Part shown: positions 8,285 through 37,801 of the stretch, one piece after another
Position numbering within the stretch: the first letter of the stretch is position 1
Layout: every line of letters begins with the position of its first letter
NCBI RefSeq assembly: GCF_003991155.1
Contig: NZ_CP031293.1
Reading direction: 5' to 3' (one strand)
DNA from: Escherichia coli
GTDB lineage: Bacteria > Pseudomonadota > Gammaproteobacteria > Enterobacterales > Enterobacteriaceae
DNA: 64,000 nt
Notes under the pieces: generated by a model
The model's input: only the letters and a program-made list of their open reading frames with translations
Databases searched by the model: none
What the model was told of the DNA's origin: nothing
Position numbers and translations under genes: made by a program

Positions 8285-9684
8285 AGTTCTGGCGACCCGG
8301 TATTACCGGCAAACTGTTTCTGGCGATTTTCGCCACCTGCATTGTCTTGCTGATCAGTATGCACTGGGCGGTGCGTATCAGTTTTGAGCGTGGCTTTATT
8401 GATTACATCAAGCATGGTAATGAACAACGGCTGCAAATGCTCGGCGATGCGCTTGGTGAGCAGTACGCCCAGCACGGGAACTGGCGCTTCCTGCGTAATA
8501 ACGATCGCTTTGTATTTCAGATCCTACGTTCGCTGGAGCATGATAACAACGAAGATAAGCCCGGCCCCGGTATGCCGCCACACGGCTGGCGCACGCAATT
8601 CTGGGTGGTTGATCAAAACAACAAAGTGCTGGTTGGCCCGCGAGCACCGATTCCACCAGACGGCACACGGCGGCCCATTATGGTCAATGGGGCGGAAGTG
8701 GGTGCGGTGATCGCCTCCCCTGTTGAACGACTGACCCGCAATACCGATATCAATTTTGACAGACAACAGAGGCAAACCAGTTGGCTGATTGTCGCTTTAT
8801 CTACCTTGTTAGCGGCGCTGGCGACATTCCCACTGGCGCGCGGTTTGCTGGCTCCGGTCAAACGACTGGTGGACGGTACACACAAACTGGCAGCGGGCGA
8901 TTTCACTACTCGCGTAGCCCCCACCAGCGAAGATGAGTTGGGCAGACTGGCAGAGGATTTCAATCAACTCGCCAGCACACTGGAGAAAAACCAGCAGATG
9001 CGCCGCGATTTTATGGCCGATATCTCCCACGAGCTGCGCACGCCTTTAGCGGTACTGCGCGGCGAACTGGAAGCTATTCAGGATGGCGTGCGTAAATTCA
9101 CGCCGGAGACGGTGGCTTCTTTACAGGCAGAGGTCGGTACACTGACCAAACTGGTGGATGATCTTCATCAATTGTCGATGTCTGATGAAGGCGCTCTCGC
9201 CTATCAAAAAGCACCGGTAGATTTGATCCCACTGCTGGAAGTGGCGGGCGGCGCATTTCGCGAACGATTCGCCAGCCGTGGCCTGAAACTGCAATTTTCC
9301 CTGCCAGACAGTATTACCGTATTTGGCGATCGCGACCGTTTAATGCAGTTATTCAATAACTTACTGGAAAACAGCCTGCGCTACACTGATAGCGGCGGTA
9401 GCCTGAAAATCTCTGCCGAGCAGCACGACAAAACGGTGCGCCTGACCTTTGCCGACAGTGCACCGGGCGTTAGTGACGATCAACTGGAAAAATTGTTTGA
9501 GCGTTTTTATCGCACCGAAGGTTCCCGCAACCGTGCCAGCGGCGGTTCCGGCTTGGGGCTGGCGATTTGTCTTAACATTGTTGAAGCACATAATGGTCGC
9601 ATTGTTGCCGCTCATTCGCCTTTTGGCGGGGTAAGCATTACAGTAGAGTTACCGCTGGAACGGGATTTACAGAGAGAAGTATGA
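8281..9684 (+). CDS. baeS: Envelope-stress sensor histidine kinase BaeS
   Basis: 467 aa; two N-terminal TM segments, HAMP, H-box (SHELRTPL) and ATPase G-boxes (GGSGLGLAI). Confidence 0.9.
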
Positions 9685-10950: not shown

Positions 10951-11168
10951 TTATATCAAAACAACTCTTAGTTATTGATAATTAAGATTAACCTCCGCCA
11001 TTAAAATAGTGGGCACTGACGAGCACTCGTTGTGCTTTCTTTGTTTACCATCCCATACTTATCTTCCTGAACATGTTCATATGCCAAAATATCTTCTAAT
11101 ACTTTCGTGACGCTATCCGGTTTATGAAATACACTGATGTAAGATTTTTACTTACAGGCGGGTGTAAA

Positions 11169-11420
11169 ATGGCCAGAACGATGACGGTTGATCTCGGCGA
11201 TGAGTTGCGTGAATTTATCGAGTCCTTAATTGAATCCGGCGACTATCGCACCCAAAGCGAAGTGATCCGTGAGTCGCTGCGCTTACTTCGAGAAAAGCAA
11301 GCAGAGTCTCGCCTGCAAGCGTTACGTGACATGCTCGCTGAAGGGTTGAGTAGTGGTGAAGCTCAGCCGTGGGAAAAGGACGCGTTTTTACGGAAGGTGA
11401 AAGCAGGGATAAGGAAATAA
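11169..11420 (+). CDS. ParD/RHH-family type II antitoxin
   Basis: Small ORF with ParD-like sequence (SEVIRESLRLLREKQ...LQALR..L.EG..SG); in-frame ATG at 11169 chosen from the 11124 ORF; stop 1 nt before the toxin start. Confidence 0.75.
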   Translation: MARTMTVDLGDELREFIESLIESGDYRTQSEVIRESLRLLREKQAESRLQALRDMLAEGLSSGEAQPWEKDAFLRKVKAGIRK

Positions 11421-11421
11421 T

Positions 11422-11718
11422 GTGCGTACTATAAAACTCATGCCAAAAGCCAATGAGGATTTAGAAGGCATCTGGTATTACAGCTATCACCATTTCGGCG
11501 AACCACAAGCCGACAGATATGTGGAACATCTTTCAGACGTTCTCCAGATTCTGAGTAACAATAATATAGGTACGCCCAGACCTGAATTAGGCGAAGGTAT
11601 TTTTGTTCTTCCTTTTGAACGCCACGTAATTTATTTCCTGCAATCGCCAGAGGAAATTATCGTCATTCGTATCCTTAACCAAAACCAGGACGCCTCCAGA
11701 CATTTACACTGGAGCTAA
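11422..11718 (+). CDS. ParE/RelE-superfamily type II toxin
   Basis: 98-aa ORF (GTG start) directly after the antitoxin; ParE-like motifs (EDLEGIWYY...GEPQADRYV...GTPRPELG); alternative ATG at 11440. Confidence 0.75.
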   Translation: MRTIKLMPKANEDLEGIWYYSYHHFGEPQADRYVEHLSDVLQILSNNNIGTPRPELGEGIFVLPFERHVIYFLQSPEEIIVIRILNQNQDASRHLHWS

Positions 11719-11820: not shown

Positions 11821-13182
11821 ATGTTTAAACCGGAACTCCTTTCCCCGGCGGGAACGCTGAAAAATATGCGTTACGCTTTCGCTTATGGCGCAGATGCTGT
11901 TTATGCGGGCCAGCCGCGTTACTCCCTGCGTGTGCGCAACAACGAATTCAACCACGAAAATCTCCAGCTCGGCATCAATGAAGCCCACGCGCTGGGGAAA
12001 AAGTTTTATGTCGTGGTCAACATTGCACCGCACAACGCCAAGCTGAAAACCTTTATCCGTGACCTGAAACCGGTGGTGGAGATGGGGCCGGATGCGCTGA
12101 TTATGTCCGATCCAGGGCTGATTATGCTGGTGCGCGAGCACTTCCCTGAAATGCCGATCCACCTCTCGGTGCAGGCTAACGCCGTGAACTGGGCGACGGT
12201 GAAATTCTGGCAGCAAATGGGACTGACCCGCGTGATCCTCTCTCGCGAGCTGTCGCTGGAAGAGATTGAAGAGATCCGTAATCAGGTGCCGGATATGGAG
12301 ATCGAGATCTTCGTTCACGGTGCGCTGTGCATGGCCTACTCCGGTCGCTGCCTGCTCTCTGGCTATATCAACAAGCGCGACCCGAACCAGGGCACCTGCA
12401 CCAACGCCTGCCGCTGGGAGTACAACGTCCAGGAAGGGAAAGAAGATGACGTTGGCAACATCGTGCACAAGTACGAGCCGATTCCGGTGCAAAATGTTGA
12501 GCCGACGCTGGGCATCGGCGCGCCAACCGACAAAGTGTTTATGATCGAAGAAGCTCAGCGTCCGGGCGAGTATATGACTGCGTTTGAAGATGAGCACGGC
12601 ACTTACATCATGAACTCGAAAGATCTGCGCGCTATCGCCCACGTTGAACGCCTGACCAAAATGGGCGTGCATTCGCTGAAAATCGAAGGTCGTACAAAAT
12701 CTTTCTACTATTGCGCACGCACCGCGCAGGTTTACCGTAAAGCTATCGATGACGCAGCTGCGGGAAAACCATTCGATACCAGCCTGCTGGAAACTCTGGA
12801 AGGTCTGGCGCATCGTGGCTATACCGAAGGTTTCCTGCGTCGTCATACTCACGACGATTATCAGAACTACGAATACGGTTATTCAGTTTCTGACCGCCAG
12901 CAGTTTGTTGGTGAGTTTACCGGTGAGCGCAAGGGCGACCTCGCGGCGGTAGCGGTGAAAAATAAATTCTCCGTTGGCGACAGCCTTGAGCTGATGACGC
13001 CGCAAGGGAACATTAACTTTACCCTTGAGCATATGGAAAACGCCAAAGGCGAAGCAATGCCGGTCGCACCGGGCGATGGTTATACTGTGTGGATCCCGGT
13101 GCCGCAGGATCTTGAGCTAAATTACGCGCTGCTGATGCGTAATTTCTCCGGGGAAACCACGCGTAACCCCCACGGTAAGTGA
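11821..13182 (+). CDS. trhP: Peptidase U32-family protein YegQ (tRNA hydroxylation protein TrhP)
   Basis: 453-aa ORF with U32 collagenase-family sequence; conserved neighbour of yegP and cyaR. Confidence 0.9.
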   Translation: MFKPELLSPAGTLKNMRYAFAYGADAVYAGQPRYSLRVRNNEFNHENLQLGINEAHALGKKFYVVVNIAPHNAKLKTFIRDLKPVVEMGPDALIMSDPGLIMLVREHFPEMPIHLSVQANAVNWATVKFWQQMGLTRVILSRELSLEEIEEIRNQVPDMEIEIFVHGALCMAYSGRCLLSGYINKRDPNQGTCTNACRWEYNVQEGKEDDVGNIVHKYEPIPVQNVEPTLGIGAPTDKVFMIEEAQRPGEYMTAFEDEHGTYIMNSKDLRAIAHVERLTKMGVHSLKIEGRTKSFYYCARTAQVYRKAIDDAAAGKPFDTSLLETLEGLAHRGYTEGFLRRHTHDDYQNYEYGYSVSDRQQFVGEFTGERKGDLAAVAVKNKFSVGDSLELMTPQGNINFTLEHMENAKGEAMPVAPGDGYTVWIPVPQDLELNYALLMRNFSGETTRNPHGK

Positions 13183-13266
13183 TTAATTTCGATTATTTTT
13201 CCCGGATGGAAAATTCTTAGAAACCGATCACATACAGCTGCATTTATTAAGGTTATCATCCGTTTC

Positions 13267-13353
13267 GCTGAAAAACATAACCCATAAAATGCTAGCTGTA
13301 CCAGGAACCACCTCCTTAGCCTGTGTAATCTCCCTTACACGGGCTTATTTTTT
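13267..13353 (+). ncRNA. cyaR: CyaR (RyeE) Hfq-dependent sRNA
   Basis: 87-nt sequence GCTGAAAAACATAACCCATAAAATGCTAGCTGTACCAGGAACCACCTCCTTAGCCTGTGTAATCTCCCTTACACGGGCTTATTTTTT matches my memory of CyaR, including the terminal hairpin and U-run. Confidence 0.85.
13327..13353 (-). other. Phage P2-type attB core overlapping the cyaR terminator
   Basis: Reverse complement reads AAAAAATAAGCCCGTGTAAGGGAGATT, which I recall as the P2 att core; no prophage genes follow. Confidence 0.55.
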
Positions 13354-13511
13354 ATGCATAAGCCCTATCTCTGGTAACCGTCTTCCATTGACCACATCGA
13401 TAGAATCTCCCTTCATAGCACGATGCCTTTCACTTATTGGCATCGTGCTCGCACAGGTTCCGGTTACGCACAGCCAGAACGCGCATGTTTGACGCTTACC
13501 AAAAAATATTC

Positions 13512-13829
13512 TCACTCTCCACATTTGAATGTCAGACGAGCGACGCCATGTAATCCTGCACCTTCTGTCTTCAATTTAACTATCTGCATTTTTTTGCCCT
13601 GTGTAACACAGAAATGAACTGCATCATTTTTTACTATATTTTCTGCACCAGATATTCTACCCCTGGCTAAAGAAGCTTCGGCTTCGGTGTAGTATTGGTT
13701 ATCGAGTTTACGCTGAATATTACTTTTATATGCAAGACCAAATTTACCGATACTTGTCTCATCATTATGTACAGCACACCCAGACATAAGAAAAACACTA
13801 ATTAATGATATAGCAGCTATCTTTTTCAT
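13512..13829 (-). CDS. yegR: Lipoprotein YegR
   Basis: Start taken at MKKIAAISLISVFLMSGC (lipobox) inside the 13512..13889 ORF; 105 aa. Confidence 0.8.
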   Translation of the reverse strand: MKKIAAISLISVFLMSGCAVHNDETSIGKFGLAYKSNIQRKLDNQYYTEAEASLARGRISGAENIVKNDAVHFCVTQGKKMQIVKLKTEGAGLHGVARLTFKCGE

Positions 13830-14244
13830 CTTACCTTCCCCCATTAAATACCAACGACACGCTCTGGTGTTTAAATATAATAATGGCATGATTATTATAA
13901 TTGAATAGGATTATAATAAATGTTCTGTACAACATTTCCTACATAAGTAGGAATTACATACACGGATGCCCTTCCGGGTAACCCCATGGGGGGGGGGTAA
14001 TATATTTTTAATAGTAGATTGAAGATGCCACTGTTTAGTTGAATATTAGGTATATGCTCTTTTTTGAAATTTATCGGTGGCTGCCGTTAATATTCGCTGT
14101 TCCCATTGCAAGCTCCTGGTGGTAACCACTGAATCCCCATACCTGAACTGACTTTTTATCCTCCGACTTTCATCCTGTTCTGACTCCACCTTTTCTTTTC
14201 TGCTCTACACTATCTACAGACCAATCATAAAGGCACATACGATC

Positions 14245-15144
14245 ATGGCAGAATTTCCCGCCAGCTTACTGATTCTTAATGGCAAAAGTACTGACAATCT
14301 ACCCTTGCGCGAAGCAATTATGCTGTTGCGTGAGGAAGGAATGACGATCCATGTGCGGGTCACCTGGGAGAAAGGCGATGCCGCACGATATGTAGAGGAG
14401 GCCCGGAAGTTGGGCGTCGCAACGGTGATTGCCGGTGGTGGCGATGGCACCATTAATGAAGTTTCTACGGCGTTGATTCAGTGTGAGGGGGATGACATAC
14501 CCGCGCTGGGAATTTTGCCATTAGGAACCGCCAATGATTTTGCCACCAGTGTAGGGATTCCTGAGGCACTGGATAAGGCGCTGAAACTGGCAATTGCCGG
14601 TAACGCCATTGCAATAGATATGGCGCAGGTCAACAAACAAACCTGTTTTATTAATATGGCGACAGGCGGATTTGGGACGCGTATTACCACAGAAACGCCG
14701 GAAAAATTAAAAGCCGCGCTGGGTGGCGTCTCTTACATCATTCATGGCTTAATGCGCATGGATACTCTGCAACCGGACCGTTGTGAAATCCGCGGTGAAA
14801 ACTTTCACTGGCAAGGTGACGCCCTGGTCATTGGTATTGGTAACGGGCGTCAGGCTGGTGGCGGTCAGCAATTGTGCCCGAACGCGTTAATTAACGATGG
14901 CTTGCTGCAACTGCGCATTTTTACCGGCGATGAAATTCTTCCGGCTCTCGTATCAACCTTAAAATCTGACGAAGATAACCCGAATATTATCGAAGGCGCT
15001 TCGTCGTGGTTTGATATACAAGCCCCACACGAAATCACTTTTAATCTTGATGGCGAACCGTTGAGCGGACAAAACTTTCATATTGAAATACTTCCGGCGG
15101 CGTTGCGTTGTCGATTACCACCGGATTGTCCATTATTGCGTTAA
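14245..15144 (+). CDS. yegS: Lipid kinase YegS (DAGK catalytic-domain family)
   Basis: 299-aa ORF with diacylglycerol-kinase-like GGDGT motif. Confidence 0.9.
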
Positions 15145-15225: not shown

Positions 15226-16005
15226 CTACACCGTAATTAATTTCACTCGTGTCTTCTGCAATGCCAGTTTATCCACCTCTGACACAGCATCGTCGGTAAT
15301 AATAATGTCAATTTTTTCGATTGGCAGTACCTGATTAAAACCGCGACGATTAAATTTCGATGAATCGAGAACGGCAATCACTTTATTTGCGGCTGTGACC
15401 ATCGCCCCGCTAATCGAATAGCCTTCATTAAAGGTCGTAATACCATTAACCGCATCAATACCATCAGCACCGACAAACATTAAATCGGCATTAATATCCT
15501 GCAATGAACGCTCAGCAATGGAGCCATGCATCGAGCGCGTTTTATGGCGGACCGTGCCACCGCAGACGACCAGAGTAATGTCTTTATTTTCGGAAAGGGC
15601 AAATGCTGCCGGGAGACTGTTGGTAATCACCGTGATATTTTTGGCGGTCATTAATCCTTCGGCGATAAGCATTGTCGTACTTCCGCTGTCGAGAATAACG
15701 GTCATCCCTTCGTGGATCATTTTGACTGCCGCCTGCGCTATTCTGTTTTTTGGCGCGCTGGCGAGCTGAAATCGCTCTTTAAACCCGACTTCCTGGGTCT
15801 CGGTTTCACTATTACCGGACATTATTTTCGCCGCACCGCCATGAAAGCGCGTAACCACGCCTTTTTGTTCGAGAAAGCGCAAATCGGCACGGATTGTCGC
15901 TTCCGAGGCAGCAAATACTCCCGCCAGATCCTGAACAAGCACGGTTCCCTGTTCATTCACTAATTGGATGATCTTATTCCTTCGCTCGAATGAATTCATC
16001 GTCAT
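15226..16005 (-). CDS. gatR: DeoR-family repressor of galactitol operon, intact
   Basis: 259-aa uninterrupted ORF with N-terminal HTH and DeoR sugar-binding domain; alternative start at 15999. Confidence 0.85.
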   Translation of the reverse strand: MTMNSFERRNKIIQLVNEQGTVLVQDLAGVFAASEATIRADLRFLEQKGVVTRFHGGAAKIMSGNSETETQEVGFKERFQLASAPKNRIAQAAVKMIHEGMTVILDSGSTTMLIAEGLMTAKNITVITNSLPAAFALSENKDITLVVCGGTVRHKTRSMHGSIAERSLQDINADLMFVGADGIDAVNGITTFNEGYSISGAMVTAANKVIAVLDSSKFNRRGFNQVLPIEKIDIIITDDAVSEVDKLALQKTRVKLITV

Positions 16006-17145: not shown

Positions 17146-17192
17146 AAAAACTCCTGATTGTTAAGGGGGATTACCTCCCCCTCAGGTAAAAA

Positions 17193-37766: not shown

Positions 37767-37801
37767 TACTGGGGGGTAGTATCAGGTACTGGGGGGGAGT
37801 A
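37767..37801. promoter_or_regulatory. RcnR operator sites (TACT-G6/7-AGTA) in the rcnR-rcnA intergenic region
   Basis: TACTGGGGGGTAGTA and TACTGGGGGGGAGTA, 5 bp apart; matches the RcnR recognition motif as I recall it. Confidence 0.7.

Follow-up and report, generated by a model that had tools for sequence, protein, structure and literature searches.

The window analysed here is a stretch of 64,000 nucleotides of Escherichia coli DNA (contig NZ_CP031293.1), in which the divergently oriented genes yegR and yegS are separated by a 415-bp spacer containing an uninterrupted run of ten G residues (Table 1). A first-pass annotation had described this run, overlapping a palindrome, in the yegR-yegS intergenic region, and the location is borne out by the RefSeq annotation of E. 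coli 2016C-3878 (NZ_CP029747.1), whose spacer is identical to that of the window. The sequence agrees with the description as well: positions 13981-13997 read ACCCCATGGGGGGGGGG, and the 16-mer CCCCATGGGGGGGGGG (CCCCATG+G10) occupies 13982-13997, so that only the quoted start coordinate was one base early. The local sequence around the tract is ...CCTTCCGGGTAACCCCATGGGGGGGGGGTAATATATTTTTAATAG....

Table 1. Features of the yegR-yegS spacer and its flanking genes (window coordinates)
Feature	Position	Strand	Remarks
yegR	13512..13829	-	105-aa lipoprotein; signal ends LMSGC
Overlapping ACGACA-16-TATAAT and TTTAAA-17-TATTAT	13854..13898	+	conserved, promoter-like; consensus match
TATAAT, inferred -10 of EvgA-dependent yegR promoter	13910..13915	-	20 bp downstream of the box
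18-bp inverted repeat TTCCTACATAAGTAGGAA, perfect 7+4+7	13936..13953		EvgA-type box, yegR; invariant in 15 haplotypes
G+C-rich island, 40 bp, 68% G+C	13958..13997		left part of hypervariable block; G run forms the island's end
GTAACC-N17-TATATT, weak, 8/12 match	13978..14006	+	below scan threshold; permissive scan
10-bp palindrome CCCCATGGGG, contains CCATGG	13982..13991		overlaps start of G run
G10 homopolymer, C10 on minus strand	13988..13997	+	hypermutable tract; G9/G10/G11 on same haplotype elsewhere
9-bp segment TTTTAATAG	~14006..14014		absent from K-12/O157 haplotypes; placement ambiguous within T/A run
TTGAAA-18-TAATAT, best-placed yegS candidate	14064..14093	+	consensus match only; K-12 has TTGAAA-18-TAGTAT
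yegS	14245..15144	+	lipid kinase

The tract is the longest homopolymer of the 64-kb window and its only G/C run of at least 9, the runners-up being C8 at 35123 and G7 at 37791. Under an i.i.d. model, G/C runs of at least 10 are expected 0.08 times per 64 kb and about 6 times per 5 Mb; likewise, G9 is matched at two overlapping positions in the window against a mean of 0.2 in dinucleotide shuffles, 5 of 100 of which reach two. A run of ten is thus unusual for the window, yet not impossible genome-wide. The surroundings had been called otherwise AT-rich, which holds for the flanks (27-30% G+C) but not for the island that the tract terminates. As for the palindrome, perfect 10-bp palindromes occur at chance frequency (56 in the window, 62 expected), and we therefore do not take it as a signal. 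The equivalent position reads CTCCATGGGG in K-12, CTCCATGGAG in O157 and CCCTATGGGG/A in other strains. The O157:H7 version is itself a perfect 10-bp palindrome, both arms of which differ from CCCCATGGGG, and that of K-12 is a half-changed intermediate between the two.

Several neighbouring loci in the window also differ between strains. Codon 403 of baeS (position 9487) is GAA (Glu) in the window and CAA (Gln) in every one of the 5,199 complete genomes that match there, a private missense change in the BaeS sensor kinase; the 99 nt around this codon (9438-9536) are 90-95% identical to 4,448 complete genomes and 80-90% identical to 687, a divergence that is high for a core gene and may reflect a segment imported into the lineage. 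Between yegP and yegQ lies a ParD-antitoxin/ParE(RelE)-toxin pair (11124-11420 and 11422-11718) that is absent from a K-12-like genome (L002). The spacer downstream of CyaR, between cyaR and yegR (13351-13511), is empty in the window, holds ogrK and a D-gene remnant in K-12 (L002, 1996-2508), and carries a full P2-like prophage, with the integrase adjoining yegR, in L021, L022 and L026; three states of a P2-type attachment site are represented here. Finally, gatR, a DeoR/GlpR-family gene by the gat operon (15226-16005, minus strand), is intact in the window and split by IS3 in L002.

Tract states and length variation across E. coli

The spacer was found in 5,423 of 5,426 complete E. coli genomes; its identity to the window reaches at least 99% in only 38 records and lies at 90-95% in most. 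In an alignment of 15 haplotypes, both ends of the spacer are near-invariant, with 5-15% variable columns over the yegR-proximal 128 bp and the yegS-proximal ~95 bp, and variability climbs to 41-53% in the ~80 bp at 13950-14029, a hot spot at whose centre the tract lies. Most strains have an interrupted run at this position, such as GGGGGCTTT (G5CTTT) in K-12, GGAGGCTTT in O157 and, in a third haplotype exemplified by the O25:H4 strain CU568-3, GGGGGACTTT (G5ACTTT); further states are GGGAGCTTT, AGGGCTTT and GGGGGGCTTA. The family that shares the left flank ACACGGATGCCC... comprises G6TT, G7TT, G7T, G8T, G9T, G9TT, G10T and G11T, so that the haplotypes together display a graded series of tract states. 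Runs of at least 8 G occur in at least four lineages or backgrounds, three of them diverged by 1.3-2.3% (G9T in L021 and L023, G9TT in L022, G8T in L026). A scan of metagenome contigs with GGGTAACCCCATG8 matched one Illumina/SPAdes-style contig, which has G9T on the same haplotype as one complete genome, and a scan of species-representative genomes with the 23-mer of the EvgA-type box matched one MAG, with G7TT. K-12 lacks the G10 run, and only about 40 of the 5,426 complete genomes have the long tract. An uninterrupted run, being absent or interrupted in most of the species, is best read as the derived state. Since G5CTTT, G7TT and G8T all total 9 nt, several of the steps between these states would have kept the total length constant, which suggests substitutions at the edge of the run.

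A 90-nt query centred on the tract resolved the window's own lineage among the 5,426 genomes. The exact G10 sequence is present in 29 of them, four have a 91-nt span (G11) and five an 89-nt span (G9) at 98.9% identity, and in the eight of these loci that were fetched the length differences prove to be G11 and G9 within the run. Three members of the lineage (MRY15-117, MRY15-131 and CREC-544) have been published as ST457, and a fourth, LWY24, is called ST93 in the title of a paper. A wider view was obtained with a 57-nt query, by which 225 of the 5,426 genomes have the exact 28-nt left flank: 29 carry G10T, another 15 match at 95-99% identity and the remaining 181 at 90-95%. Among the 15 are four G11T, seven G9T, one G9TT and a G8T class with one verified member, and of 48 evenly spaced matches from the 181, 47 have the identity and span expected of G7TT, so that G7TT looks uniform across ~180 genomes. 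Off-mode lengths, on the other hand, account for 9 of the 38 genomes of the G9-G11 lineage (24%), G10 being modal in 76%. Instability hence rises with run length.

The backgrounds in which the length changes occur are nearly clonal. Over 20 kb, the six G9 or G11 genomes compared are 99.98-99.99% identical to the window; leaving aside one SNP that only the window carries, 0-2 SNPs separate them from it, and none is shared by the variants in a way that would group them. If 9 variants among 38 near-clonal genomes, at ~0.7 SNP each per 20 kb, are set against a star-like genealogy and the standard E. coli base-substitution rate, length would change about 1e-6 times per generation; by this rough estimate the tract changes thousands of times faster than a site is substituted and far more slowly than classical contingency loci switch. 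In mutation accumulation experiments the indel rate climbs exponentially with homopolymer length, 8-bp G:C runs already being outliers in K-12 (PMC8510543), and the estimated rate fits this published rise. The earlier view of the run as slippage-prone and length-variable is thereby upheld, G9, G10 and G11 occurring in otherwise identical 90-mers: the comparison across strains that had been proposed as a check finds tract length not to be invariant, and the slippage part of that interpretation stands.

Long G runs are, however, a weak point of long-read consensus, and some of the ±1 calls may be long-read assembly errors. The same annotation had flagged the tract as a frequent site of sequencing error, an apt warning given MRY15-131, a G9 genome assembled from PacBio RSII reads with HGAP, in which a second homopolymer deletion (G5 to G4 at window position 17165) is found nearby. 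This G5-versus-G4 difference (17161-17165, in the gatD-gatC spacer) is in its own right a likely homopolymer consensus error. Taken further, the argument would be that the tract is real, its true length is fixed at G10, and the G9 and G11 calls in ST457 are for the most part such errors. The absence of phylogenetic clustering among the variants over 20 kb fits random error and fast mutation equally. Yet in five of the six variant genomes the tract is the only indel over 20 kb, runs of A7/T7 size included; variants of both signs, +1 and -1, are seen, and SX4 and SX48 agree on G11. Moreover, G8T, G9T and G9TT are fixed in other lineages, with G9T found both in a complete genome and in the short-read-style metagenome contig, and different lengths fixed elsewhere mean that length change at this site has happened repeatedly. 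We thus regard it as unlikely, if still deserving some weight, that the G9 and G11 calls are for the most part errors. The tract as such does not stem from a single faulty assembly, since 29 independent complete genomes have the very same 90-mer with G10.

Position of the tract relative to promoter-like sites

EvgA activates a set of promoters that includes those of emrK, frc, yfdX, ydeP, safA and yegR. To name the inverted repeat at 13936-13953 we used TTCYTACA-NN-TGTARGAA, which we take to be the EvgA consensus (Masuda and Church 2003). The repeat, located upstream of yegR, has no mismatch to TTCYTAC-N4-GTARGAA, and when this pattern was run with at most one mismatch over a 23-kb test region of a K-12-like genome (emrKY-evgAS-yfdEVU-frc-yfdX), exactly three matches were obtained, one each ahead of emrK/evgA, frc and yfdX; next to the yfdX box lies a further site that has 3 mismatches. 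The yegR box is thus the same 18-bp inverted repeat that these EvgA-activated promoters have in common, whereas the tract is not part of this element and only neighbours it. This is consistent with a review that names yegR among the promoters strongly bound by EvgA (PMC8147483) and with transcriptome data that make yegR an EvgA-type acid-stress gene (PMC5811628). The box lies 20 bp from a minus-strand TATAAT, a distance that is invariant among the haplotypes and at which the emrK box has TTTAGT, and this arrangement implies a class II (-41.5) EvgA promoter for yegR. Transcription would then start near 13903 on the minus strand, with the centre of the box near -41.5 and the tract, 34 bp distal to the box, between roughly -85 and -94, past the activator. 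Because the tract lies beyond the box, its length cannot alter the geometry between box and -10.

On the side of yegS, the -35-like hexamer of the best-placed candidate starts 66 bp downstream of the tract. Of the two overlapping plus-strand sites near yegR, Shimada et al. (PMC3946193) predicted TTTAAA-17-TATTAT to be the promoter of yegS, and a transcript from either of them would read through the tract. The same authors predicted a yegRZ promoter, TAAACA-18-TATATT, whose start would fall in the C-run in K-12 (PMC3946193). This arrangement is created by the lack of the 9-bp segment TTTTAATAG and hence exists only in haplotypes without it; we rejected it as a conserved promoter, as the 9-bp indel removes it from the window and from CU568-3. 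The SELEX-predicted yegRZ promoter is, in other words, haplotype-specific. The supplements of a SMRT-Cappable-seq study mention neither yegR nor yegS.

The first-pass annotation had gone on to suggest that the G run could create a length-variable promoter element. We do not retain this suggestion. A spacer scan at a threshold of 9/12 or better found no sigma-70-like site that spans the tract, and both the EvgA-type box and the best yegS -35-like hexamer lie at the distances given above. The G run falls into the spacer of just one promoter-like arrangement, the sub-threshold GTAACC-N17-TATATT, which matches the -35 consensus at 3/6 positions without TTG and has no extended -10; since 8/12 matches are common in this AT-rich DNA, it adds little to the case for a promoter.

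The suggestion can be cast in a stronger form, in which the tract would be the spacer of a new weak yegS promoter with a start near 14013, or would set the phase of Nac or H-NS relative to the EvgA-dependent yegR promoter, and in which G9, G10 and G11 would tune expression. The GTAACC/TATATT spacer measures 15 nt in K-12 and with G7TT, and 16, 17 and 18 nt with G9, G10 and G11, respectively, so that it reaches the optimal 17 bp exactly at the modal G10, an observation that counts against strict neutrality. Furthermore, a Nac ChIP-seq peak in K-12 is located ~162 bp upstream of the yegR start codon, at the equivalent of the tract position, and yegR goes down 22-fold upon Nac induction (PMC5217608); H-NS and an RpoD SELEX peak have been reported in the yegR-yegS spacer (PMC3946193). 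With Nac at the tract equivalent and H-NS on the spacer, a 1-bp change could alter the phasing of bound proteins. That loss of yegS is beneficial in glucose-limited chemostats (PMC3708739) indicates, in addition, that yegS dosage can matter. Against all this stand the poor match of the spanning hexamers, the placement of the tract outside the interval between EvgA box and -10, the roughly estimated rate of ~1e-6 changes per generation, which would be far too slow for a classical contingency locus, and the fact that the surrounding 80 bp are the least conserved part of the spacer. We therefore consider a regulatory role of tract length improbable. Its most specific version, namely that growth of the run to G10 in ST457 made an optimally spaced yegS-directed promoter or re-phased Nac/H-NS, with slippage to G9 and G11 serving as a slow tuning knob, we would give even less credence.

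A role at the RNA level fares worst. Conceivably, a plus-strand hairpin or a weak intrinsic terminator could have the G run as its 3' arm, perhaps where an unannotated transcript of ~100 nt, antisense to the yegR leader and initiated at 13854-13898, reaches its 3' end. In K-12 the plus strand, and only this strand, can form a 12-bp stem (ATTGAGGCCCTT/GGGGGCTTTAAT; z = -2.9 against shuffles) in which GGCCCTT is the partner of the G-run; a single double change among the haplotypes, G:U to U:G, preserves its pair, the upstream 13910-13957 is nearly invariant, and a terminator-like site (5-bp stem, 8-nt loop) is called in the window. Nevertheless, the window sequence folds no better than shuffles (z = 0.17), the terminator is called neither in K-12 nor in CU568-3, and RNAalifold returned no covariation, its covariation term being positive (unfavourable). 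Pairing on the structure derived from K-12, itself one of the sequences compared, amounts to 84.6%, compared with 82% in shuffles, a margin that related sequences can show with no structure at all. An Rfam search in E-value mode over 13100-14400 returned only CyaR, at 13265-13350, leaving the spacer without a match. Because the flanking genes are divergent, no transcription unit ends at the tract, and an intrinsic (Rho-independent) terminator was discarded, being called in the window only and in a sequence that folds no better than shuffles. On balance, we grant the hairpin only the slightest chance of being correct.

Further readings were rejected. A G-quadruplex would have to be built from GGG (13976-13978) and G10, from which, if every loop is to have 1 nt or more, no more than three G3 runs can be obtained; a fourth would require at least G11. 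Translation of the tract on the plus strand (ATG-GGG-GGG-GGG-TAA) shifts frame with tract length, and a 30-aa minus-strand ORF (13895-13987) stops after 4 codons in K-12. Small ORFs starting at CCATGG are not conserved on either strand.

Origin and significance of the tract

The reading that we favour, and consider likely, is that the G10 run is a lineage-specific, slippage-prone mononucleotide repeat situated midway in the divergent yegR/yegS control region, where constraint is lowest. Its history may have begun with an older interrupted G-run that lost its interrupting C, giving rise to the G7TT family; T-to-G changes at the edge of the run, together with slippage, would then have lengthened it, the order of these steps being the one that the extant states suggest, and the slippage rate would have risen steeply with run length. 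The tract would have little or no effect on expression, since it lies upstream of the EvgA box that would drive yegR and well upstream of the likely yegS promoter. Judging from this position, it is probably neutral and not a genetic switch. The features of a neutral repeat are all found here: a derived state, an instability that rises with length and a weakly constrained sequence. Of the features that characterize promoter contingency loci, G10 displays an uninterrupted repeat of slippage-prone length (for G:C, from about 8 upwards), but it is placed neither in a -35/-10 spacer nor between an activator site and a core promoter.

Polymorphic mononucleotide repeats were reportedly described in non-coding E. 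coli DNA by Gur-Arie et al. in 2000 and by Diamant et al. in 2004. Compared with these, the tract stands out by its ten G:C pairs, which exceed the 8-bp G:C outliers of K-12 (PMC8510543), and by its absence from that strain. It otherwise resembles them closely, being an intergenic homopolymer with slippage variation from strain to strain and no demonstrated function. In Bordetella pertussis, poly-C tracts in the fim2 and fim3 promoters bring about BvgA-dependent phase variation, and EvgA is the E. coli relative of BvgA. The likeness lies in a G:C homopolymer of similar length within the promoter region of a gene that is activated by a NarL/FixJ-type regulator; the fim tracts, however, sit between the activator site and the -10 and set its geometry, whereas the yegR tract is found 34 bp beyond the box. 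The promoter repeats of Neisseria porA/opc and Haemophilus hifA-hifB are contingency loci, too. They share with the tract a location in a control region (a divergent one in the case of hif) and a length that varies between isolates, but the promoters whose -35/-10 spacer they occupy are strong and mapped, and they switch frequently, while only an 8/12 pseudo-promoter spans the tract of the window.

For practical purposes, the tract is an unstable or error-prone site, where spurious indel calls and differences of ±1 from one ST457 assembly to another are to be expected; it could at the same time serve as a fast-evolving marker within this lineage, which is multidrug-resistant and occurs in animals, wastewater and patients. 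No result obtained here points to a tuning of yegR or yegS by the tract. Were it nevertheless true, the tract would add a case of repeat-mediated promoter variation, which is rare in E. coli, and a promoter-repeat contingency of the Bordetella/Neisseria type would be arising there de novo. As we read it, the series of tract states illustrates how a homopolymer may be born: once the base that interrupts it has gone, the run grows at its edge, after which slippage speeds up.
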